Shown piece after piece: positions 22,986 through 35,957 of a stretch of 56,221 nt of DNA (positions within the stretch are counted from its first letter, which is position 1; every line of letters starts with the position of its first letter). Position numbers and translations under genes: made by a program. The notes beneath the pieces were generated by a model. It was not told the origin of the DNA. It ran no database searches and worked only from the letters and a program-made list of their open reading frames with translations. Where the stretch lies: positions 1 to 56,221 of the forward strand of contig CAYLVM010000005.1 of the NCBI GenBank assembly GCA_964387145.1, read 5' to 3'. Origin of the DNA: an uncultured Acidimicrobiaceae bacterium (GTDB lineage Bacteria; Actinomycetota; Acidimicrobiia; Spongiisociales; UBA5794).

Positions 22986-23075
22986 GGAATCGTTCCTTTC
23001 GTGACCACCCCACGATAGGAACCCTTGGGGCATGTGCAACGCACACATACCCCGTCGAACGCGTACCCTCAGGGT

Positions 23076-24845
23076 ATGTTTGGTGCTCGATTCGACGACG
23101 TGGCGAGGCAGGAGTCGTTCGTACTGACACGGCCTCTCGAGACGCTCGCGGCGTCGACGTGCGACGAGGTTCGCGACGTGATCGCTCGGGCGGGTGAGGC
23201 AGCCCGGGGCGGGGCCTGGGTTGCAGGGTACGTGTCGTACGAAGCTGCACCAGCGTTCGACGCCGGCTACGTCGTGCGATCGTCCTCCAGGCCGTACGTG
23301 GCATGGTTCGGCGTCTTCGGTGGGAGGGAGCTCGTTCCGGTGGCTGTGCACGACCCGCGTGCAGGCGGTGGGTACGCTGTGTCGAAGTGGAGCCCTGTGA
23401 TCGACAAGGACGATTACGAGTCCATCTTCTGCGCTGTCAAGGAGCGTATCGAGAACGGGGAGGCGAACCAGGTCGAACTGACGTTCCCGCTCCGTGCAGC
23501 CTTCACGGGTAGCGCCGACGTGTTCTACAACGATCTCGTCTGTGCGCAGCGCCCCGGATACGCGTCACACCTCTGGCACGACAACGTCCACGTTCTGTCG
23601 GTGTCCCCGGAGCGGTTCTTCACCGTCGACGACGGCGTCGTGACCGTCCAACCGATGAAGGGTGTGGCCGCCAGAGGGCGATGGCTTGCAGAGGACGACA
23701 TGCATAGGGATGCTCTTGCAGCCTCAGGCGAAGACCGGTCAGACAATCGCATGGTCGTTGACCTGGTACGCAAGGAACTCTCCCGGATCGCGATACCCGG
23801 TACCGTCGAAGTTGGCGACCTCTTCACCGTCGAGCAGTTCAGAACCGGTTGGCAGATGAGCTCGACGATCACCGCTGTGACCAGGGAGGACACGGGCCTC
23901 CTCGACGTGTTCGATACGTTGTTCCCGAGCGGAACGGCCACGGGCGATCCGAAGGCTCGATCCATGAAGATCATCGCCGACCTCGAGCCGTCGCCACGTG
24001 GCATCTACTGCGGAACGATCGGCTACATCCCACCTGGCGATGGGCTCGAGGGTGCGTCGTTCAACGTCGCGATCAGGACCGTCGAAGTCGACGAGGCCGA
24101 GGGCGTTGCTACCTACGGTGTGGGAGCGGCGATCACGAGGCACTCGACCGTCGACGAGGAGTTCGATGAGGCGGTCACCACGTCTGAGGTTCTGCGGTTC
24201 AACGTCTCTCCACTGCAGCTGATCGAGATCGTCCGATGGGACGATGGCTGGCTGTGGTTGGACGATCATCTCGATCGCATGGAACGAAGTGCTTCTTACT
24301 GGGGTTTCAAGGTCGATCGCTACGAGATCATCGAGATGCTCGACGAAGCTGTCTCGACGTGTTCGGGACCGATGCTGATACGCATCGTGGCTCAGCCAGA
24401 CGGATCCGTGTTCGTGACGACGGAGTCGACACATGAACGCTGGTCTCCAGGCCCGGGGCCGTCGGCTGATCCGGTGCTACTCGCTCTCGATCTCGAGCCG
24501 ATCGACAGTCGTAACCCGCGGATATTCCACAAGACGTCCGACCGACGATCATTCGCGGTTCGCAGCGAGCGCCATCCGGGATGCGACGATGTGCTCCTCA
24601 TCAACCGCCATGGGCAGGTCACCGAGTCGACGGTCGCCAATGTCGCGTTTCGCATCGACGAGCGATGGGTCACGCCTCCGGTGACCGACGGTCTCCTCGC
24701 GGGAGTGATGCGGAACCGACTCGTCGCCTCAGGCACGTTGGAGGAACGATCGGTGAGCATCCGTGAGGCGCTCGACGCGGACGTCGTCGCGCTCGTGTCG
24801 TCTGTACACGGCTGGCGACCTGCCGTCCTGGTCGAGCACTCCTGA
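23076..24845 (+). CDS. PabB-PabC-type fusion (chorismate-binding domain + class IV PLP lyase domain)
   Basis: SPERFF, PMKG, RGIYCGTIG and FNVAIRT (MST fold); LDDHLDRMERSA, FHKT and DGLLAG (class IV). TACCCT 6 nt before ATG 23076. Confidence 0.85.
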   Translation: MFGARFDDVARQESFVLTRPLETLAASTCDEVRDVIARAGEAARGGAWVAGYVSYEAAPAFDAGYVVRSSSRPYVAWFGVFGGRELVPVAVHDPRAGGGYAVSKWSPVIDKDDYESIFCAVKERIENGEANQVELTFPLRAAFTGSADVFYNDLVCAQRPGYASHLWHDNVHVLSVSPERFFTVDDGVVTVQPMKGVAARGRWLAEDDMHRDALAASGEDRSDNRMVVDLVRKELSRIAIPGTVEVGDLFTVEQFRTGWQMSSTITAVTREDTGLLDVFDTLFPSGTATGDPKARSMKIIADLEPSPRGIYCGTIGYIPPGDGLEGASFNVAIRTVEVDEAEGVATYGVGAAITRHSTVDEEFDEAVTTSEVLRFNVSPLQLIEIVRWDDGWLWLDDHLDRMERSASYWGFKVDRYEIIEMLDEAVSTCSGPMLIRIVAQPDGSVFVTTESTHERWSPGPGPSADPVLLALDLEPIDSRNPRIFHKTSDRRSFAVRSERHPGCDDVLLINRHGQVTESTVANVAFRIDERWVTPPVTDGLLAGVMRNRLVASGTLEERSVSIREALDADVVALVSSVHGWRPAVLVEHS

Positions 24846-24879: not shown

Positions 24880-25722
24880 TCACTCGGTGGCCAGGAACGT
24901 CTCCGTCGTGTCCCAGAGATCCTCGATGCGGTCGACGCGAACGGTTGCATCGTCATGGAGATCTGAGGCGACCTGGGCGACAAGCAGCTCAGCCATGGTG
25001 ACGGCAGGAACCGAGCTGTCGAAGGGGCCGATCGCCGGCACGGTCAGCTCGCACCATGTCGCGGCGAGGGCAGCGAGGGGAGACAGCGGACCGTCGGTGA
25101 TAGCGATCATCTCAACGCCGGCGTCGGCGAGGATGCGTGCGATGCGAACGGCCTCTGCGCGGTAGCGGGAGAAGTCGAACGCGACACCGGCATCACCGGC
25201 CCGCGCGTCGGCAAGGGCGACGGGAACGGTTGCCCCTTCGAGGAAGTGAACGTTCGGTCGGATCATGCTGAGTCCGCTGAACAGCGTGGAGGCGCCTGCC
25301 CGGGATGTCTCGCCGGTCACGATCCACACTGCATGGGCGCGCACGAGGGGAGCGGCGAGAGCCGCAAGTCGTCCACCCTCTGTGACCTCGAACACGGATG
25401 CGGTGGCACGGTCGATCGCGGCCTGCGCGGTCGCGTTCGTGGACCCATCGTGGCGGATCCTCTGACTCGGGCGGGTCACCTGTTCCGAGAGCGTCTCGCG
25501 AACCGAAGCCTGGAGTTCGCTGTACCCACCGAATCCGAGCTTGTGCGCGAACCGCACGATCGACGGCCGGCTCGTCCCGACACGGGTTGCGAGATCCGAT
25601 ACGGTGCCGAACGCGAGAAGCGTAGGTTCGGCGAGTACCGCCTCTGCGATGCGGCGCTCCGTCGGTGTCAGGCGATCTGCAGCGGCGGCGATGAGTTCCG
25701 GTGTCGTGGCTCGGATGTGCAT
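24880..25722 (-). CDS. MurR/RpiR-family transcriptional regulator (HTH + SIS)
   Basis: LTPTERRIA, TSRPSIVRFAHKLGFGGYSELQ, SIS-domain AITDGPLSPLA. Divergent from the aminomutase operon. Confidence 0.93.
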   Translation of the reverse strand: MHIRATTPELIAAAADRLTPTERRIAEAVLAEPTLLAFGTVSDLATRVGTSRPSIVRFAHKLGFGGYSELQASVRETLSEQVTRPSQRIRHDGSTNATAQAAIDRATASVFEVTEGGRLAALAAPLVRAHAVWIVTGETSRAGASTLFSGLSMIRPNVHFLEGATVPVALADARAGDAGVAFDFSRYRAEAVRIARILADAGVEMIAITDGPLSPLAALAATWCELTVPAIGPFDSSVPAVTMAELLVAQVASDLHDDATVRVDRIEDLWDTTETFLATE

Positions 25723-25802
25723 TGTGTTACAGTATCATAAAGCAGATATTCACTGCGTTACATGACCGACTCCGTGAGAGCACCAGCGAATCGAGGCTGC
25801 AA
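25723..25802. promoter_or_regulatory. Divergent promoter region rpiR / aminomutase operon
   Basis: TACTGT 6 nt before the rpiR ATG on the minus strand, TATCAT (25733-25738) on the plus strand, two GTTACA copies (25726, 25757). Confidence 0.55.
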
Positions 25803-27257
25803 GTGGGCACATCGAGCAAGTACGTTCCATCGGCGAGGGAGCAGGCGTTCCTCGACCGGGTGGAGAACCCCAAGTACGATCGGGAGATCATCAACGGTCT
25901 CACCCCGTTCTTCGAGGACCGAGCCCCGGACGATATGAAGGACTTCTACTCGAGCGACGAGATCGCTGCATTGACAGAACTCCGCGGCACCGAGCGTGAC
26001 GTCGAGGCCCGCATGCCGGTCAAGATCACCCGGCATTACTTCGAGATGGCGAAGCATTCACAGGCCCTTCAGCGTCTGGTCAAGGCGAGCCCCGACGAGA
26101 CGCTCAACCTGGCAGGATCTGAGGATCCAGGCTTTCAGATGGACTACAGCCCGGTCGAAGGCTTGCTGCACAAGTACGAGATGGGACTCATGTACGTGAT
26201 CTCTACATGCTCGGCCCACTGTCGGTTCTGTTACCGCGAGGAGCTGATCTCTCGCAAGGACATCGAGCGCCAGGACGGGACCGTTGCCAAGAAGGGGTTG
26301 GCCCAGATCGGCGACGTGACGGCCTACATTCGGTCACACAACGCAGTCGTCGAGAGCAACGGTGGCGTCCACCCCGAGTCGGGGCGTGAGAAGCTGCGCG
26401 AGATCCTGCTCTCTGGTGGCGATCCGATGGTGCTGCCGAACGCGAAGATCGCAGCATGGTTCGCCGCACTCGCCGAGGCAGGTGTCGAATCCATCCGGCT
26501 TGGAACGAAGGAGATGGCGTTCTACCCCGATCGTTTCGACGGTGCGTTCCTCTCCATGCTCGATGCGTTCCACGAGACGTACCCCGACGTGGGGCTCAGG
26601 TTGATGGTCCACTTCAACCACCCCGACGAGTTCCTCGTCAAGGATGCTTCCGGTGCGTACCTCGAGAACCCGAACGGGTCGCTGCGATGGAACGATCGGG
26701 CCAAGCGGGCCATGGATGCGATCGTCGAACGTGGCTGGATCAACGTCGAGAACCAGGCACCGATCATCAAAGGGATCAACGACGACGCTGATGCCCTGCG
26801 GATCATGCAGCGGGCGCTGTACCGGGTCGGAGTCGGCAACCACTACTTCTTCTGCGGTAGGGACATCGTTGCCCACAAGGCGTTCAACGTACCCATCGAG
26901 ACCGCATGGCACATCCTCAACGAATCCCAGAAGGGCCTCTCGGGCGTTGAGACCCACGCTCGTCTGTCGATCACCCACTACAAGGGCAAGACCGAGGTGG
27001 CAGCGGTCACGAACGAGCCGATCCCCGGCGTTCCAGCATCCCAGAACGGGGTCCTGGTCTTCAAGATCCTTCGCAACGCCAAGGACGCGAAGGACCGAGG
27101 CAAGGTGTGCATCGTCGGTCGCAACCCTGACGCGATCTGGTTCGACGACTACGAGGATCGCGTCATCTACGACGAGGCGGGACTCTTCGACTACCGGCGC
27201 GTCGAAGCCCAAGGTGCTGAGGTTCCGTTGAGCGTTGGCTCGCCCGTGTCGTCGTGA
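25803..27257 (+). CDS. KamA/lysine-2,3-aminomutase-like radical SAM enzyme (substrate unknown)
   Basis: PVKITRHY, SPVEGLLHKY, CSAHCRFCYR (CxxxCxxC), LSGGDP, HFNHPDE, NQAPIIKGINDD, LSG...KGK. GAGG RBS before GTG 25803. Confidence 0.9.
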   Translation: MGTSSKYVPSAREQAFLDRVENPKYDREIINGLTPFFEDRAPDDMKDFYSSDEIAALTELRGTERDVEARMPVKITRHYFEMAKHSQALQRLVKASPDETLNLAGSEDPGFQMDYSPVEGLLHKYEMGLMYVISTCSAHCRFCYREELISRKDIERQDGTVAKKGLAQIGDVTAYIRSHNAVVESNGGVHPESGREKLREILLSGGDPMVLPNAKIAAWFAALAEAGVESIRLGTKEMAFYPDRFDGAFLSMLDAFHETYPDVGLRLMVHFNHPDEFLVKDASGAYLENPNGSLRWNDRAKRAMDAIVERGWINVENQAPIIKGINDDADALRIMQRALYRVGVGNHYFFCGRDIVAHKAFNVPIETAWHILNESQKGLSGVETHARLSITHYKGKTEVAAVTNEPIPGVPASQNGVLVFKILRNAKDAKDRGKVCIVGRNPDAIWFDDYEDRVIYDEAGLFDYRRVEAQGAEVPLSVGSPVSS

Positions 27258-27964
27258 TCGACAAGACCGTCCCCGGGTGTGCCGCCGCTGTTGGCGACGT
27301 CTTCGACGGAGCAACCGTGATGATCGGTGGCTTTGGAGAAGCAGGGAGCCCGATCGAACTCATCCACGCACTCATCGATCAGGGTGCAGGCGAACTCACC
27401 GTCGTCAACAACAACACGGGAAGTGGAGAAGTCGGGCTCGCGGCGTTGATCAAGGCAGGGCGCGTATCCAAGATGATCTGCTCGTACCCGCGAACGGTGA
27501 ACTCAACCGTCTTCCCTGAGCTGTACCGCAGCGGCCGCACGGAACTCGAGCTCGTGCCCCAGGGAACCCTTGCCGAGCGGATACGTGCCGGTGGTGCCGG
27601 GATCCCTGCGTTCTACACACCAACATCCGTCGGGACACCGCTCGAGGAGGGCAAGGAACGCCGATCGTTCGCGGGGAGGGAGTACGTGCTCGAACACGGT
27701 CTCACCGCAGATTTCGCGTTGATCAAGTGCCAGGTTGCCGACCGATACGGCAACCTCGTCTACAACAAGACAGCGCGCAACTTCGGTCCCATCATGGCGA
27801 CCGCAGCCGATACCACGATCGTTCAAGCCACCGAGATCGTCGAACCAGGAGGTATCGATCCCGAGTCGGTGGTCACTCCGGGGATCTTCGTCGACGCGGT
27901 CGTCCTGGTCCCGCATCCCACCTACGAATCCGAACTCGTCGCAAAGGGAGTGTCGTACCCGTGA
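27254..27964 (+). CDS. pcaI: 3-oxoacid CoA-transferase subunit A, PcaI-type
   Basis: MIDK, DGATVMIGGFG, NNNTGSGEVGLAALI, ELVPQGTLAERIRAGGAGI, GNLVYNKTARNFGPIMA, VVTPGIFV. Close to the remembered PcaI sequence. GTGA overlap with the upstream gene. Confidence 0.85.
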   Translation: MIDKTVPGCAAAVGDVFDGATVMIGGFGEAGSPIELIHALIDQGAGELTVVNNNTGSGEVGLAALIKAGRVSKMICSYPRTVNSTVFPELYRSGRTELELVPQGTLAERIRAGGAGIPAFYTPTSVGTPLEEGKERRSFAGREYVLEHGLTADFALIKCQVADRYGNLVYNKTARNFGPIMATAADTTIVQATEIVEPGGIDPESVVTPGIFVDAVVLVPHPTYESELVAKGVSYP

Positions 27965-28650
27965 GCAGCCGAACCACGATCGTTGGATGGACGCGGGATG
28001 AGATGGCTGAACGCGCAGCACGCGACATCCCAGACGGTTCCTATGTGAACCTTGGTATCGGCATCCCCGAGCTCGTCGCTACACACGTACCTGCCGGCAG
28101 GGAGGTCATCTATCACACCGAGAACGGGCTGCTCGGGATGGGGCCGTCCCCCGAGGACGGGATGGGTGATCCAGAGTTGATCAACGCGGGTAAGCGACAG
28201 GTCACAGCGTTGCCGGGAGCAGCGTTCTTCCACCACGCAGATAGTTTTGCGATGATCCGCGGCGGACACATCGACCTCTGCGTTCTCGGCGCCCTGCAGG
28301 TCTCTCAGTACGGCGATCTCGCCAACTGGTCCACCGGCGCCCCGGACGCCATTCCTGCCGTCGGCGGGGCCATGGACCTCGTAGCGGGGGTCAAGACGAT
28401 CCACGTCATCACGCAGCACACGACGAGGGACGGCCAGCCGAAACTCGTGCGTTCGTGTACGTTCCCACTGACAGGACCCGCTGTGGTCGACCGGATCTAT
28501 ACCGATCTCGCCGTGATCGACGTCGCACCGGATGGATTCGTGCTCGTCGAACTCGCACCCGGTGTCGACCTCGACTACGTGCGAGAGCGGACAGGTGCAC
28601 CGCTCATTGCGATCGATGACAGCGAGGAAGGGATTGAGAGCGATGGGTGA
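27961..28650 (+). CDS. pcaJ: 3-oxoacid CoA-transferase subunit B, PcaJ-type
   Basis: YVNLGIGIP, catalytic Glu in HTENGLLGMGP, AFFHHADSFAMIRGGH, GDLANW, AVGGAMDL, FPLTG. Confidence 0.85.
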   Translation: MSSRTTIVGWTRDEMAERAARDIPDGSYVNLGIGIPELVATHVPAGREVIYHTENGLLGMGPSPEDGMGDPELINAGKRQVTALPGAAFFHHADSFAMIRGGHIDLCVLGALQVSQYGDLANWSTGAPDAIPAVGGAMDLVAGVKTIHVITQHTTRDGQPKLVRSCTFPLTGPAVVDRIYTDLAVIDVAPDGFVLVELAPGVDLDYVRERTGAPLIAIDDSEEGIESDG

Positions 28651-29962
28651 AGGAACGACGCAGTCCAAGAGTGCTGCGCTCTACGAACGTGCGCTTCGAG
28701 TCCTGCCGGGTGGGGTGAGTCGCAACACGGTGCTGCGAAAGCCGCACCCCCTCTACGTCGATCATGGGTCCGGATTCCGGGTGACCGACATCGAAGGGGT
28801 CGAACGTATCGACTTCGCGAACAACATGGCGTCGTTGATCCATGGACACGCCCATCCGGCGATCATCGATGCCGTCACCGAACAGATGTCCAAGGGAACT
28901 GCGTTCACTCTCGCTACCGAGGTGGAAATCCGCTACGCCGAACATCTCACCCAACGCAACGATGGATTCGAGAAGATCCGCTTCGTCAACTCGGGAACGG
29001 AGGCCGTGATGGCGTCCGTCAAGGCGTCTCGTGCGTTCACCGGCCGGTCCAAGATCGCGAAAGTCGAAGGGGCCTACCACGGTGTCTACGACTACGCCGA
29101 AATCAGCCAGACATCGAGCCCTGCAAACTGGGGAAACGCATCGGAGCCGGTCGGCGTACCGGTCGCCTACGGCACACCAAGCGCCGTGCTCGCCGACGTC
29201 GTCGTCATCCCGTTCAACGACCCGCAGCGTGCCGTAGCGATCCTCGACGAGCATCGGGGTGAGCTGGCATGTGTCCTGATCGACCTCATGCCACACCGTG
29301 TCGGCCTGTCTCCGGCGGAACCTGCGTTCGTGACGGCCCTGCGGGAGTGGACCGAGGCGGATGGATCGCTGCTCGTGTTCGACGAGGTCATCACGTTCCG
29401 TTCCGAGTACGGCGGAGCCCAGACCTGGTATGCCGAGCGACCGGATCTCACGGCCATGGGCAAGGTCATCGGCGGGGGCTTCCCGGCCGGGGCCATCGCC
29501 GGTCGTAGCGACGTGATGAACGTCATGGATCCCCTTGCCGAGAACGTCCTGTTCCCACACTCCGGTACGTTCTCAGCGAACCCGATCACGATGACGGCCG
29601 GTCTGGTAGCCATGACACTGTTCGATGCTGATGCGGTCGAGCGGGTGAATGCGCTGGCGACTCGCGCCATCGAAGGTATCACGGAGGCGATCACAGCGAG
29701 GGGAGCCACGGCGTGTGTCACCGGTGGCGGGTCCATGTTCCGTGTGCACCTCAAGGCACAGCCGCCGAGAAACTACCGTGAGGCGTACGCCGACGCTCAA
29801 GAGACGGCCCGGCGTCTCGCCCTCGTCGAGTATCTCCTCGAACGCGGGTTCATCATGATCAACACCTGCTCGGCAACGATCTCGACACCGATGGGCAACG
29901 ACGAGATCGATGCCCTCGTCGAAGCGGTGGCGGACGGACTGGAACGTTACGCAACGACGTAG
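28643..29962 (+). CDS. Class III PLP aminotransferase, HemL/beta-transaminase subgroup
   Basis: LPGGVSRNT, IRFVNSGTEA, YHG, FDEVITFR, PDLTAMGKVIGGG (PLP Lys), HSGTFSANP. Confidence 0.9.
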   Translation: MGEGTTQSKSAALYERALRVLPGGVSRNTVLRKPHPLYVDHGSGFRVTDIEGVERIDFANNMASLIHGHAHPAIIDAVTEQMSKGTAFTLATEVEIRYAEHLTQRNDGFEKIRFVNSGTEAVMASVKASRAFTGRSKIAKVEGAYHGVYDYAEISQTSSPANWGNASEPVGVPVAYGTPSAVLADVVVIPFNDPQRAVAILDEHRGELACVLIDLMPHRVGLSPAEPAFVTALREWTEADGSLLVFDEVITFRSEYGGAQTWYAERPDLTAMGKVIGGGFPAGAIAGRSDVMNVMDPLAENVLFPHSGTFSANPITMTAGLVAMTLFDADAVERVNALATRAIEGITEAITARGATACVTGGGSMFRVHLKAQPPRNYREAYADAQETARRLALVEYLLERGFIMINTCSATISTPMGNDEIDALVEAVADGLERYATT

Positions 29963-31408: not shown

Positions 31409-32431
31409 GTGATGTCAGGAAACGCAAGCTTCGACCTGCGAGACGCAGCGATCGTCTCGATCGCCCACGTGGACGCTCCTCAGATCGTGACCTCGAGCGA
31501 CATCGACGAACAGCTCGCCGAGACTTATGAGCGTGTCGGTGCCCAACCCGGCCTTCTCGAAAGTCTTGCGGGTATCCGTGAGCGACGCTGGTGGCCTGAA
31601 GGCCATCTCTTCACGGATGCTGCTGCAGCAGCCGGCGCCAAAGCCATAGAGGCAGCCGGCATCCGCTCCGACGACATTGGCCTTCTCATCGACACATCGG
31701 TGTGTCGAGACCGCCTCGAACCGTCATCGGCAGTCACCGTGCACAACGCACTCGACCTGCCAAGCTCATGCATGAGCTTCGACCTCTCCAATGCCTGCCT
31801 CGGTTTCGTCAACGCGCTCCAAGTTACGGGCAACATGATCGACGGAGGCCAGATCGACTACGCGTTGATCGTCGATGGCGAGGGGAGTCGTGGGCTCCAG
31901 GAGAACACGATCGCCCGCCTGGCCGGACCCGACACGACGATGGGGGACCTCTTCGCAGAGTTCGCATCCTTGACGCTTGGATCCGGCGGCGCTGCAGCCG
32001 TAGTCGGACGCCACTCAGACAACCCGGGGAGTCATCGCATCGTCGGTGGCATCGCTCGTGCCGATACGAGCCACCACGACATCTGCGTAGGCGACCTCGA
32101 GGGCATGCGGACCGATACCAAAGCCCTTCTCGACGCTGGTTTGCACGTGTCCAAGCTGGCCTGGGGTGATGCAGACGAGCGGGGATGGCTCGATGCAGAC
32201 CGCTACATCGTGCATCAGGTGTCCCAGGTACACACCGCAATGCTGAACGAACTTCTCGGTCTTGACCCAGCGAAAGTGCCGCTCACGTTCCCAACACTCG
32301 GAAATGTGGGCCCGGCATCGATCCCGATCACGCTCTCGATGGAGTCCGACTCCCTGAGTCCAGGAGACAAGGTACTCCTGATGGGGATCGGATCCGGGAT
32401 CAACGCGTCTGCCATCGAACTGATCTGGTGA
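31409..32431 (+). CDS. oleA: OleA-type thiolase-fold condensing enzyme
   Basis: GIRERRWW, RLEPS (catalytic Glu), FDLSNACLGF (Cys), ASLTLGSGG, HQVS (His), GNVGPASIP (Asn), MGIGSGIN. Confidence 0.9.
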   Translation: MMSGNASFDLRDAAIVSIAHVDAPQIVTSSDIDEQLAETYERVGAQPGLLESLAGIRERRWWPEGHLFTDAAAAAGAKAIEAAGIRSDDIGLLIDTSVCRDRLEPSSAVTVHNALDLPSSCMSFDLSNACLGFVNALQVTGNMIDGGQIDYALIVDGEGSRGLQENTIARLAGPDTTMGDLFAEFASLTLGSGGAAAVVGRHSDNPGSHRIVGGIARADTSHHDICVGDLEGMRTDTKALLDAGLHVSKLAWGDADERGWLDADRYIVHQVSQVHTAMLNELLGLDPAKVPLTFPTLGNVGPASIPITLSMESDSLSPGDKVLLMGIGSGINASAIELIW

Positions 32432-34995
32432 TCCCGGCCGCTCACCGATCGGCGAGCCTGCCACCGTCTGGCCTCGACGGACTCGACCCGACGTGGTCGC
32501 GGTTGATCACGACCCCCGCCCTCGACGGCGTCGGAAGAACCTGGCACGTGCTCGACAACCGGGTCACAGATCCATCGCTGACACTGCTCTGTGTCCATGG
32601 CAACCCCACATGGTCGTACCTGTGGCGTGACCTTCTCGCATCGGCGCCGCCGGGCGTGCGGGTCGTCGCCGTCGATCACCTCGACATGGGGTTCTCCGAG
32701 CGGACAGGAACAACGCGCCGTCTTGCACAGAGGATCGACGATCTCTGCGCGCTCACCGGTGCCCTCGAGATCGATGGCCCCGTCGTGACCGTAGCCCACG
32801 ACTGGGGAGGGCCGATCTCCCTCGGGTGGGCAGAGCGTCACGTGGACCAACTCGCCGGCGTGATCCTGATGAACACGGCAGTGCACCAACCACAGGACGT
32901 CGCTCCACCCGGCCTGATCCGGCTCGTGAGGACGCCCGGCCTCCTCGAGAAGGTCTGTGTCACCTCGCCGATGTTCGTACGTGGGGCAATGGCCCTGTCA
33001 CGTCCCCGTCCGGACAAGGACGTCAGACGCGCCTACGAGGCCCCGTACGGCAACCCGGAGGTGAGGCATGGGATCGCCGGGTTCGTAGAGGACATACCCC
33101 TCGACCCGCATCATCCGACGCGTGCAACGCTCGACGCCGTTGCGAACGGTCTCGAAGGTCTCAAGGATGTCCCGACGCTGCTGCTGTGGGGACCCTCCGA
33201 TCCGGTGTTCTCGGATCGCTACCTTCGCGATCTCGCGAAACGTCTGCCCCAGGCATCGATCCACCGGTTCATTGGAGCAAGCCACATGCTCCCCGAGGAT
33301 GTAGATGTCGCGCCCGTCGTGTACGCGTGGATCGACCGCGACACCGCTATGCCACCCATCGGTGACGGACGAACCCGAGAATCGCTTTGGGCAGCGATCG
33401 AGCGACGATCCAATGACCGAGATCCAGCGGTGGTCGACATGGGCAAGGAGGGTGCCCAACGGTACGTCACGTTCGCCGAGTTGGCCGAAGGAGTCTCGGA
33501 CCTCGCCTCCGGTCTTGCGGCCATAGGCGTCGCCCCCGGTGACCGGATCGCGTTGCTCGTGCCTCCGGGCATCGACCTGGCGCTCTGTCTCTACGGTGCG
33601 TGGAGAGCGGGTGCTGTCGTGGTGCTCGTCGACGCAGGTCTTGGCGTCCGCGGGATCGGGAGGGCACTCAAGAGCGCCAACCCCCAGTATCTCATCGGCA
33701 TCCCAAAGGCCCTGGCTGCTGCCCGCACGATGCGATGGCCCGGTGTCGGTATCTCGACGTCGACCTTGGCAGTATCTCAGGCCCGCGCTCTCGGTGTCAG
33801 GCACTCACTCGACGAGATCCGCAAGCGCGGACGAAGCCACCAGACGCCTGCCGAGGTCGGCGGTGATGCGTACGCGGCGGTTGCGTTCACATCGGGGGCC
33901 ACCGGACCGGCGAAGGGAGTCGTCTACCGACACCGCCAGCTCCAGGCGCAACGCGATGCACTTGTCGACCTTTACGACATCGTTGAGTCCGACCGGCTCG
34001 TTGCCGCGTTTGGCCCATTCGCTCTCTTTGGGCCGGGGATGGGGATCCCGTCTGTCGTCCCGCACATGGACGTGACATCGCCTGGAACGCTCACCGCCAG
34101 TTCGCTCGCAGCGGCGGTTGAAGCGATCGACGCGACCATGGTGTTCGGATCGCCGGCAGCGCTGCGCAACGTCACCGCGACGGCAAGCGACCTGTCCCAC
34201 GATGAGCGCGAGCACCTCGCACGGGTCCGACTGCTGTTGTCGGCCGGTGCACCGGTTCCCGCCGACGTACTCCATGGTGCGGTCGAGGTGATGCCGAACG
34301 CCGAGCCACATACGCCGTACGGCATGACCGAGGTCCTTCCCGTCGCCGACATCTCTCTTTCTCAGATCGATGAGGCAGGCGACGGTTCCGGTGTCTGCGT
34401 CGGACTTCCGGTCCACGGCATCGACGTCGTGATCGATCCGTTCGACCGACAGGGGGTGCCGAAGGGAGCCACGACGACCGATCCCGACGTGGTCGGGGAG
34501 GTCTGCATCAAGGCGCCGCACATGCGCGATGGTTACGACAACCTGTGGTTCGCGCAGCACGCCGCGTCTCAGCCTCCGGGCTGGCACCGAAGTGGCGACG
34601 TCGGGCACTTCGATGCCGAAGGGCGCCTATGGATCGAGGGCAGGATCGTTCACGTCATCTCCACCATGTCGGGGCCTGTTACCCCTATCGGCCTCGAGCA
34701 TGCGATCAACCGACTCGAGGGAGTTGCGCTCTCGGCCATCGTTGGAGTCGGTCCGAAGGGAACGCAGCAGGTCGTGGCAGTCATCGTTCCCGATCCCGGC
34801 ATCCGGCGATCCTCGCTCGCAGGCGAGGGGCTTGCAGACCAGGTGCGCTCGCAGGTCGGAGCCGTTGACGTCGCAGCGGTGCTCGTCGTCCGGTCGCTGC
34901 CGGTCGACAAGCGGCACAACTCCAAGATCGACCGGACGCGCGTTGCTGCCTGGGCCGAGCGCGTGCTCGCCGGTGGGCGGATGGGGAATCCATGA
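32428..34995 (+). CDS. oleBC: OleB-OleC fusion (alpha/beta hydrolase + beta-lactone synthetase)
   Basis: HGNPTWSYLWR and HDWGG (haloalkane-dehalogenase-like OleB), then FTSGATGPAKGV, TPYGMTEVLP, HRSGDVGH and LPVDKRHNSKIDR (OleC). Confidence 0.9.
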   Translation: MIPAAHRSASLPPSGLDGLDPTWSRLITTPALDGVGRTWHVLDNRVTDPSLTLLCVHGNPTWSYLWRDLLASAPPGVRVVAVDHLDMGFSERTGTTRRLAQRIDDLCALTGALEIDGPVVTVAHDWGGPISLGWAERHVDQLAGVILMNTAVHQPQDVAPPGLIRLVRTPGLLEKVCVTSPMFVRGAMALSRPRPDKDVRRAYEAPYGNPEVRHGIAGFVEDIPLDPHHPTRATLDAVANGLEGLKDVPTLLLWGPSDPVFSDRYLRDLAKRLPQASIHRFIGASHMLPEDVDVAPVVYAWIDRDTAMPPIGDGRTRESLWAAIERRSNDRDPAVVDMGKEGAQRYVTFAELAEGVSDLASGLAAIGVAPGDRIALLVPPGIDLALCLYGAWRAGAVVVLVDAGLGVRGIGRALKSANPQYLIGIPKALAAARTMRWPGVGISTSTLAVSQARALGVRHSLDEIRKRGRSHQTPAEVGGDAYAAVAFTSGATGPAKGVVYRHRQLQAQRDALVDLYDIVESDRLVAAFGPFALFGPGMGIPSVVPHMDVTSPGTLTASSLAAAVEAIDATMVFGSPAALRNVTATASDLSHDEREHLARVRLLLSAGAPVPADVLHGAVEVMPNAEPHTPYGMTEVLPVADISLSQIDEAGDGSGVCVGLPVHGIDVVIDPFDRQGVPKGATTTDPDVVGEVCIKAPHMRDGYDNLWFAQHAASQPPGWHRSGDVGHFDAEGRLWIEGRIVHVISTMSGPVTPIGLEHAINRLEGVALSAIVGVGPKGTQQVVAVIVPDPGIRRSSLAGEGLADQVRSQVGAVDVAAVLVVRSLPVDKRHNSKIDRTRVAAWAERVLAGGRMGNP

Positions 34996-35957
34996 GGGTC
35001 CTCGTGACGGGGGCAACCAGCCTCCTCGGCCGCACGGTCACCGAGCATTTGCTCGCCAGAGGTGACGATGTGACGGTGTTCCAACGCCACTCGAGCGATA
35101 TCGACACGCGTGAGATCCTCGGTGATGTCTCCGACAGTGACGTCGTTGCACGGGCGGCGGAAGGTGTCGATGCGGTCGTGCACCTTGCTGCACGGGTCGG
35201 TGTGGTCGGCGTATGGAGACAGTTCGAGAGAACGAACATCATGGGTACGACGAACGTGATCACTGCTGCGCGTAGCGCCGGTGCATCGCGATTCGTTCAC
35301 GTCTCGTCTCCAGCAGTTGCGCACGCTGGAGTGTCACTCATTGGAGCGGGCGCCGGTGCAGCCAACCCGAACAGTGCACGCGGACCGTACGCCCGCAGTA
35401 AAGCGTTCGCCGAGCATGCCGCACTCGCCGCGAACTCCTCCGAGATGTCAGTCGTGGCGGTACGCCCGCACCTCGTATGGGGACCGGGCGACACACAACT
35501 CGTGGGTCGGATCATCGAGCGAGCCAGGCAGGGGAGACTCGCGATCGTCGGTACGGGTGCATCACTCATCGACAGCACCTACGTCGACAACGCCGCTGAT
35601 GCTCTCGTCGCCGCGCTCGACCGGGCAGACACCGTTGGAGGCAGGGCCTTCGTCGTGTCGAATGGCCAACCGAGGCCGGTACGTGAACTCATCAACAGGA
35701 TCGTTCTTGCCGCAGGGTTGGAGCCGCCGAGCATCGCGGTTCCGTACCGTGTCGCACGCGGCGGCGGCCTGGTATTGGAGAAGGTATGGGACCGCACCGA
35801 GCGGACCGATGACCCCCCGATGACGAGTTTCCTCGCAGAACAGCTGGGAACCGCCCACTGGTTCGATCAGCGCGAGACCCGAGAGGCGCTCGGTTGGATT
35901 CCGTCCGTCTCCCTCGACGAGGGGTTCCGGCGGCTGGCAGCCTCCTTCGGGTCGTAG
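34992..35957 (+). CDS. oleD: OleD-type NAD(P)-dependent reductase (extended SDR)
   Basis: VLVTGATSLLG, VHLAA, HVSSP, YARSK, RPHLVWGPGD. Follows oleBC with an ATGA overlap. Confidence 0.88.
   Translation: MRVLVTGATSLLGRTVTEHLLARGDDVTVFQRHSSDIDTREILGDVSDSDVVARAAEGVDAVVHLAARVGVVGVWRQFERTNIMGTTNVITAARSAGASRFVHVSSPAVAHAGVSLIGAGAGAANPNSARGPYARSKAFAEHAALAANSSEMSVVAVRPHLVWGPGDTQLVGRIIERARQGRLAIVGTGASLIDSTYVDNAADALVAALDRADTVGGRAFVVSNGQPRPVRELINRIVLAAGLEPPSIAVPYRVARGGGLVLEKVWDRTERTDDPPMTSFLAEQLGTAHWFDQRETREALGWIPSVSLDEGFRRLAASFGS

Follow-up and report, generated by a model that had tools for sequence, protein, structure and literature searches.

Which amino acid is rearranged by a distant relative of lysine 2,3-aminomutase (LAM) in which both residues that grip the lysine side chain appear to be lost? 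This question is raised by a gene at 25803..27257 (+) of a 56,221-nucleotide stretch of DNA from an uncultured Acidimicrobiaceae bacterium (GenBank assembly GCA_964387145.1, contig CAYLVM010000005.1), the whole of which is called the window here. In clostridial LAM, Asp293 and Asp330 hold the epsilon-ammonium group of lysine. Public sources that name proteins of the present kind mostly say 'lysine 2,3-aminomutase', a name that the residue evidence contradicts. The distal side-chain site is predicted to be charge-reversed relative to LAM, with Arg387 at the Asp293 position, the Asp330 position deleted and a hairpin made basic by His426 and Lys428. The substrate is probably an acidic amino acid, and we put the probability that it is L-2-aminoadipate specifically at roughly 55%. 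The gene and its motifs are as follows; residue numbers are those of a 518-residue translation, from which 34 is subtracted for the 484-residue protein.

25803..27257 (+), KamA-like radical S-adenosylmethionine (SAM)/pyridoxal 5'-phosphate (PLP) 2,3-aminomutase, 484 aa (NCBIfam KamA at 88.6 bits, LAM structure 2A5H as relative, AlphaFold2, Foldseek)
26208..26237 (+), CSAHCRFCYR, cluster cysteines C170, C174 and C177 with Arg179 at the LAM Arg134 position (alignment with LAM CSMYCRHCTR)
26409..26426 (+), LSGGDP, SAM-binding motif with G, G and D invariant (aligned with LAM LLSGGD)
26838..26870 (+), NHYFFCGRDIV, strand and loop with Arg387 (26859-61), the probable LAM Asp293 counterpart, then Asp388 (26862-64) (alignments; invariant in 71 orthologues)
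26958..26990 (+), ARLSITHYKGK, hairpin with the predicted PLP lysine Lys430 (26988-90), the Asp330 position deleted, and basic His426 and Lys428 (Gly-Lys invariant; Asp330 in a gap)

The gene product is predicted to belong to the KamA family, as a divergent amino acid 2,3-aminomutase that uses radical SAM chemistry and PLP and has its catalytic core kept (CxxxCxxC, GGD, Arg and Lys430). The nearest NCBIfam family was KamA (TIGR00238), whose cut-off of 199.2 bits was not reached by the 88.6 bits of the query, marking it as a distant member by sequence. Scores also stayed below the cut-offs of the models for lysine 2,3-aminomutase (TIGR03820; 68.8 against 525.4 bits), glutamate 2,3-aminomutase (TIGR04368; 75.2 against 650), arginine 2,3-aminomutase (TIGR04468; 85.4 against 600) and EpmB (TIGR03821; 81.5 against 369.3), and Pfam gave a sub-threshold Radical_SAM match only. 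The sole close solved relative by sequence was 2A5H, and the family profile raised this match to E 2e-78. AlphaFold2, given a 45-sequence alignment, produced a model with a predicted local distance difference test score (pLDDT) of 91.3 and a predicted template modelling score of 0.89. Foldseek returned 2A5H as its top match for this model (E 5e-17, ~18% identity in the structural alignment), with generic radical SAM proteins following at E ~1e-5, twelve orders of magnitude behind, showing that the protein has the LAM-like fold of the KamA family. The CxxxCxxC motif for the [4Fe-4S] cluster and SAM was found as CSAHCRFC (residues 170-177), its three Cys invariant and matched to the cluster cysteines of LAM. 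Arg179, two residues past the third Cys, was aligned with Arg134, which binds the alpha-carboxylate in LAM. Gly429 and Lys430 were invariant in alignments of 45 and 20 sequences and aligned with LAM GGGGK337.

These features (CxxxCxxC, GGD, the Arg after the third Cys and the Gly-Lys of the PLP lysine) are shared with the LAM of Clostridium subterminale (KamA, 2A5H) and with AblA and YodO, as are the fold, also recovered by HHalign with a probability of 100%, and a predicted homodimer. Unlike LAM, the query has no zinc-site cysteines: GINDD was aligned to LAM GVNDC, and the five Cys in 484 aa include no C-terminal CxCxxC cluster. The Cys of GVNDC and the C-terminal CxCxxC are reportedly the structural zinc ligands of LAM. 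The query further differs in two insertions of ~22-30 aa (after the cluster helix and after HFNHPDE), in its C-terminal domain and in having no WxDWxWQ N-terminus. The homodimer was predicted with a score of 0.88, against 0.00 for the best of three controls, and the runs had at least 93% of contacts in common with a partner pLDDT of at least 85. Of 30 proteins solved as pairs, 20 come up to the mark used, against 1 of 23 solved as single chains; as LAM is itself a solved oligomer, the pass may reflect mere likeness. In the predicted dimer, His381 of one copy (347 in 484-aa numbering) contacts residues 415-419 (381-385) of its partner, just before the PLP hairpin, and the substrate pocket may thus lie near the subunit interface.

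Translation of 25701-27254 (+) gave GNHYFFCGRDIV, in which Asn380 is encoded at 26838-40, Arg387 by AGG at 26859-61 and Asp388 at 26862-64. The same frame contains HARLSITHYKGK, with Arg421 at 26961-63, Lys428 at 26982-84 and Lys430 at 26988-90. The motifs and coordinates in the first-pass annotation, NHYFFCGRDIV with Arg at 26859-26861 and RLSITHYKGK, were therefore exact. That annotation had placed the Arg at LAM Asp293 by ungapped alignment and had allowed that a one-residue shift might bring the adjacent Asp there instead. When the HMMER family profile (ylFqcrp) was compared with 2A5H, the family FQCR paired with LAM YQCD293 (YIYQCD293). MAFFT joined HQCD of the LAM-like protein P0265, FFQCR of the sister clades and FFCGR of the query without a gap, and in the alignment of P0265 to 2A5H its Asp corresponded to Asp293 and its later Asp and Lys to Asp330 and Lys337. 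When the family and its sisters were compared by HHalign with 20 LAM-type proteins, some of them named as AblA or YodO, Arg387 paired with the invariant Asp of the LAM clade (probability 100%, E 2e-46). The spacing of anchors from the strand Tyr was the same in LAM and the query, with Phe at +13, Pro at +16 and Asp293 or Arg387 at +5. Because of this identical spacing, Asp388 could take the Asp293 role only through two compensating indels within eight residues. The ungapped placement was upheld by the profile, MAFFT, HHalign and the spacing alike, whereas the shift found no room, and Asp388 was rejected as the Asp293 counterpart.

The Asp330 position was found to be deleted. LAM has T-F-V-V-D330-A-P-G-G-G-G-K337 where the query has A-R-L-S-I-T-H-Y-K-G-K, one residue shorter from Ser-Gly to Lys, and Asp330 fell in a gap between Ser423 and Thr425 in MAFFT at two settings and in HHalign. 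The segment before the PLP lysine held no acidic residue; it holds His419, Arg421, His426 and Lys428. In the AlphaFold2 model a strand (387-392 in 484-aa numbering) was followed by a two-residue Tyr-Lys turn and a strand (395-403) that opens at Gly-Lys430 (518 numbering). The earlier claim that no Asp is available for 330 was thus confirmed by the deletion in all three alignments and by the lack of acidic residues. The Gly-Lys is invariant and aligned with LAM K337, which makes Lys430, the second Lys of KGK (26988-90), the predicted PLP lysine. Neither of the two lysine-binding aspartates of LAM was therefore present in the query, which has Arg387 at 293 and a gap at 330. On these alignments, both placements relative to LAM are highly probable.

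The two segments were strongly conserved. Among 71 orthologues taken from 80 genome loci in many phyla, N-H-Y-F-F-C-G-R-D-I and H-A-R-L-S-I-T-H-Y-x-G-K-T-E-V were invariant, where x (Lys428) was K in 67, R in three and L in one, and 228 of the 484 positions were at least 97% conserved. The 45-sequence alignment reached down to 25-30% identity; there the Arg was at least 90% conserved and Gly-Lys was invariant. Rooted on the LAM-like clade, a 64-sequence tree that contained no bona fide glutamate 2,3-aminomutase was split cleanly. All LAM-like sequences had Asp at 293 and x-D-x-P/T-G-G-G-G-K, and the other branch had Arg at 293 and a shorter loop, except for one Lys, one Met and one Cys (a poor sequence). 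This Arg branch took in generic 'KamA family' proteins at 25-30% identity, and equivalog cut-offs were reached by none of 15 KamA-like proteins of the Arg branch and sister clades. From the alignments and the tree, the exchange of Asp293 for Arg and the loss of the Asp330 loop are an old trait of a whole deep and uncharacterised KamA branch, not one special to the query gene. Since it is common to the whole branch, the signature cannot by itself name the substrate. Other residues were specific to the orthologue group, namely Cys385, Gly386 and Asp388 (Gln, Cys and Leu/Glu/Pro in the sisters) and Thr425, His426, Tyr427 and Lys428 (Ser-Thr-Glu-x in the sisters).

Two cases within the Arg branch were observed separately. 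The protein P0262 stands out by a Lys at the Asp293 position and an Asn four residues ahead of its PLP lysine, which resembles the Lys and Asn reported for glutamate 2,3-aminomutase; it scored 188 bits with TIGR04368 against the cut-off of 650 and may be an independent glutamate-type solution. A P0131-like sister clade, ~42% identical to the query, does not carry the gene module described below, and its seven loci shared no neighbours from which a substrate could be named. A beta-keto-acid cleavage enzyme (BKACE) adjoins in L123 (1696-2565 -), a class III aminotransferase in L093 (4538-5896 +) and fliI/fliJ in four further loci; L123 and L093 may represent other aminomutase-initiated beta-keto routes.

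The genes around the aminomutase were then the second source of evidence on its substrate. The adjoining features in the window are:

24880..25722 (-), divergent RpiR/MurR-family regulator (HTH_6 and SIS domains; Pfam PF01418 and PF01380), beside the aminomutase in most related loci
25723..25802 (no strand), divergent intergenic region of 80 bp, with ribosome-binding site GAGG at 25793-96 before GTG 25803 (read from the sequence)
27254..27964 (+), 3-oxoacid coenzyme A (CoA)-transferase subunit A, PcaI/ScoA family (TIGR02429, 338.1 bits against a cut-off of 128.5); its start overlaps the aminomutase stop
27961..28650 (+), 3-oxoacid CoA-transferase subunit B, PcaJ/ScoB family (TIGR02428, 299.1 bits against a cut-off of 243.55); GTGA overlap with subunit A
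28643..29962 (+), class III aminotransferase of the beta/gamma-amino-acid (GSAM-like) type (PF00202); probable start ATG 28643, the mechanical open reading frame (ORF) running from 28532

The two subunits make up a two-subunit family I 3-oxoacid CoA-transferase, although TIGR02429 does not tell PcaI from ScoA. Subunit A was 63.7% identical to Rhizobium etli pcaI, which lies within a pcaIJF operon with a divergent IclR-family regulator; the highest-scoring solved relative of the transferase was Bacillus ScoA. The best solved relative of the transaminase was 6K8H (E 1.6e-122), and the beta-transaminases 2YKU and 4AO9 matched too. 6K8H is an omega-transaminase of Sphaerobacter thermophilus that has been used on beta- and gamma-amino acids (PMC10589169). 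None of kamDE, kdd, kce, ablB or efp/epmA was found near the aminomutase.

The module of RpiR regulator, aminomutase, PcaIJ-type transferase and class III transaminase was present in nearly all of the 80 genome loci, with the aminomutases 70-85% identical, and, given a contig of sufficient reach, in most of another 73 loci from metagenomes. Its carriers, mostly marine-sediment or vent bacteria, belong to Acidimicrobiia, Gammaproteobacteria (Woeseiaceae, Lysobacterales), Acidobacteriota (Thermoanaerobaculia), Planctomycetota, Chloroflexota, Gemmatimonadota, Polyangiaceae and others. No close orthologue was found in a 300-genome sample of the phylum of the query itself, and this patchy distribution suggests horizontal spread. 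A thiolase was found within the cluster in 27 of the 80 related genome loci, but none lies in this window. Of these 27, the 24 full-length thiolases that were scanned all matched 3-oxoadipyl-CoA thiolase (PcaF) families best, and that of L029 exceeded the equivalog cut-off (678 against 597). The thiolase adjoins the transferase in the gammaproteobacterial arrangement. A third arrangement occurs in six metagenome loci (L115, L129, L133, L134, L147 and L153), where the order is aminomutase, transferase A and B, transaminase and then a convergent thiolase ~55% identical to the gammaproteobacterial PcaF. In related loci, a 3-oxoadipyl-CoA thiolase is thus linked to the transferase. No other gene was conserved outside the core module in the related loci, save parts of an amino-acid-type ABC transporter in about nine.

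Since a beta-type transaminase is joined to a transferase and thiolase of 3-oxoadipate type, the beta-amino acid in question would be 3-aminoadipate, and from this we infer 2-aminoadipate as the substrate of the mutase, and with it the reaction direction. Counted in bonds from C-alpha, the terminal carboxylate oxygens of 2-aminoadipate lie at the same distance as N-zeta of lysine, and Arg in place of Asp293 is therefore the expected exchange; we infer the role of Arg387 accordingly, as the residue that would face this carboxylate. The view of the first-pass annotation that an acidic side chain is favored thus gained independent support from the conserved 3-oxoadipate-type neighbours, a context that favors 2-aminoadipate over glutamate.

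The mechanism proposed here is taken over, by analogy, from LAM, for which SAM cleavage, abstraction of the C3 hydrogen, an aziridinyl-carbinyl radical and hydrogen return are established chemistry. A 5'-deoxyadenosyl radical from SAM cleavage would take the C3 hydrogen from the substrate-PLP aldimine, the imine nitrogen would move via an azacyclopropylcarbinyl (aziridinyl-carbinyl) radical, and 3-aminoadipate would be released after return of the hydrogen. The co-transcribed beta-type transaminase would then convert 3-aminoadipate to 3-oxoadipate, and the PcaIJ-type transferase would activate this to 3-oxoadipyl-CoA with succinyl-CoA as donor. Finally, a PcaF thiolase, encoded elsewhere in the genome of the query and in-cluster in other phyla, would yield succinyl-CoA and acetyl-CoA. 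No published description of a route from 2-aminoadipate via 3-aminoadipate to 3-oxoadipate was found in the literature, where a search for natural 3-aminoadipate metabolism gave unrelated papers only.

The genome of the query beyond the window was consistent with part of this route. It contained one thiolase above the PcaF cut-off (635.5 bits), on another contig, and the PcaI/ScoA-family gene of the window was its only one. Protocatechuate dioxygenase (pcaH) was absent from this genome and no pcaD was above cut-off, and a role of the transferase in aromatic catabolism was rejected on these grounds. As to the supply of 2-aminoadipate, the genome had one saccharopine-dehydrogenase-like gene without telling neighbours and no lysine 6-transaminase at cut-off.

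Several points weigh against 2-aminoadipate. Arg at the 293 position is common to all of the non-LAM branch, sister clades in other gene contexts among them, and may serve a general role there instead of selecting this substrate. Arg is ~3-4 A longer than Asp, and by geometry alone glutamate or another shorter acid would fit no less well. Genes leading from lysine to 2-aminoadipate were not linked to the module in the loci examined. Further, PaaA is present in the genome of the query, and its PcaF could belong to the phenylacetate pathway; phenylacetate catabolism needs no free-acid CoA-transferase.

If Arg387 were a structural or cofactor-binding residue of the whole branch, the enzyme could act on a neutral substrate such as leucine or 2-aminobutyrate within a general beta-keto-acid route. 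The retention of the Arg over clades with differing contexts (flagellar neighbours, the BKACE of L123, the transaminase of L093) fits this reading, as do the sister sequences that lose the Arg134 equivalent yet keep Arg at 293, and the top-scoring solved CoA-transferase, Bacillus ScoA. However, the thiolases are of the PcaF and not the acetoacetyl-CoA type, the orthologue-specific His426 and Lys428 make the surroundings of the PLP lysine more positive, and the Asp293 position of LAM reportedly contacts the distal end of the substrate; a neutral substrate is thus unlikely. Glutamate would engage Arg387 through its gamma-carboxylate, and the cluster would then handle beta-glutamate, a marine osmolyte, via 3-oxoglutarate. 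For this speak the long Arg side chain, which suits a shorter acid, the mostly marine-sediment or vent carriers and a pocket charge-reversed like that of the known glutamate enzyme, which reportedly has a Lys at the Asp293 position. Yet the query scored 75 bits with TIGR04368 against a cut-off of 650, the linked thiolase was of 3-oxoadipyl-CoA type in 24 of 24 clusters scanned, and the transferase is 64% identical to rhizobial pcaI. Moreover, glutamate catabolism needs no radical route, and use of beta-glutamate needs a mutase or a transaminase branch, not both, so that we consider glutamate quite unlikely.

Two further substrates are each very improbable. Lysine, or another basic amino acid, would still be accepted if a local bulge put Asp388, which comes right after Arg387 and is invariant in the 71 orthologues, in the Asp293 role. 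Such a shift does not fit the output of three alignment methods or the identical spacing of the anchors, Asp330 has no counterpart, and at position 388 the sister clades carry Leu, Glu or Pro; in addition, the genes kamDE, kdd, kce, ablB and efp/epmA are missing nearby, and beta-lysine would need extra enzymes to reach 3-oxoadipate. The pocket evidence leaves chain length unfixed, and PcaF/PaaJ-type thiolases take C6 to C8 3-oxo-dicarboxyl-CoAs, so that another dicarboxylic amino acid could be used, e.g., 2-aminopimelate, which would pass through 3-oxopimeloyl-CoA to glutaryl-CoA and acetyl-CoA. Against this, 2-aminoadipate is the common metabolite, and in a 3-oxoadipate route the thiolase would supply the very donor, succinyl-CoA, on which the transferase depends.

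The proposed 2-aminoadipate enzyme and its route can be set beside several known systems. Ruzicka and Frey, in 2007, reportedly placed Lys and Asn at the LAM Asp293 and Asp330 positions of glutamate 2,3-aminomutase. The query, with Arg and a deletion, does not have this pair. It resembles the glutamate enzyme (Eam of Clostridioides difficile) in belonging to the KamA family, in the loss of both lysine-binding aspartates and in a basic residue at the Asp293 position, and differs in these residues and in its 3-oxoadipate-type gene context. With EpmB (YjeK) and arginine 2,3-aminomutase (BlsG type) it shares the PLP- and radical SAM-dependent 2,3-amino shift on a free amino acid that marks the superfamily; those enzymes, however, act on basic substrates, and the query has neither efp/epmA nor an antibiotic-cluster context. 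The lower beta-ketoadipate pathway (PcaIJ and PcaF, as in rhizobial pcaIJF) has the CoA-transferase subunits A and B of the module and, in other phyla, its thiolase, with succinyl-CoA and acetyl-CoA as the products proposed here too. Unlike in that pathway, 3-oxoadipate would arise here from an amino acid via aminomutase and transaminase and not from cleavage of an aromatic ring, the regulator is RpiR and not PcaR/IclR, and there are no pcaBCDGH genes. Lysine fermentation (KamA, KamDE, Kdd, Kce, Kat/Kal) likewise begins with a KamA-type 2,3-aminomutase and takes a beta-keto acid on to CoA esters. The present module differs from it in its predicted substrate and in having no 5,6-aminomutase, 3,5-diaminohexanoate dehydrogenase or BKACE; its beta-keto acid would be activated by a CoA-transferase and cleaved by a thiolase.

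The start of the aminomutase gene is likely GTG 25803, with GAGG upstream at 25793-96. The mechanical ORF runs over 25701-27257 (518 codons), with GTG 25701 as the longest-ORF start. Over its first 34 codons this ORF runs into the start of the divergent rpiR gene (25722); homologues measure ~484 aa, with matches that start at query residues 30-40. Because of this overlap and of the homologue length, the 518-codon ORF reaches too far upstream; GTG 25701 is almost certainly not the start used, and the gene may have been over-extended by annotation pipelines.

Further loci and genes were noted in passing. The closest plasmid-borne relative of transferase subunit A (71.5%) lies on Tistrella mobilis plasmid pTM2 (L090; NC_017966.1, 335828-352532), where a DUF1338 protein, an aldehyde dehydrogenase and a PLP aminotransferase are encoded no more than a few kb away. 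DUF1338 is the family of HglS, an enzyme that converts 2-oxoadipate, and this neighbourhood looks like one of lysine/2-aminoadipate type. Elsewhere in the window, a single ORF at 23025-24845 (+) fuses a chorismate-binding domain (PabB-like) with a class IV aminotransferase domain (PabC-like). Three co-oriented genes at 31409-35957 (+) encode a KAS III-like protein, an alpha/beta-hydrolase-AMP-binding enzyme fusion (855 aa) and a nicotinamide adenine dinucleotide-dependent epimerase/reductase, and may form a small lipid or polyketide-like unit.

In its widest form, to which we give about even odds, the proposal is that the Arg branch is a large set of 2,3-aminomutases whose substrates are non-basic amino acids, probably acidic ones. 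Within it, the group of the query would be an L-2-aminoadipate 2,3-aminomutase founding a widespread, horizontally spread and carbon-conserving route from lysine-derived 2-aminoadipate to succinyl-CoA and acetyl-CoA in bacteria of marine sediments and vents from at least eight phyla. To our knowledge, lysine, glutamate and arginine are the only established substrates of radical SAM 2,3-aminomutases; if the proposal is true, 2-aminoadipate would be the fourth. A change at one position (Asp293 to Arg) and a loop deletion would then re-code the distal pocket, which would be of use in engineering the synthesis of beta-amino acids. For lysine catabolism, the route would be a third fate of 2-aminoadipate, one that avoids oxidative decarboxylation and ends in central CoA esters, carried by a module that is highly conserved (70-85% identity) over distant phyla abundant in marine sediments.

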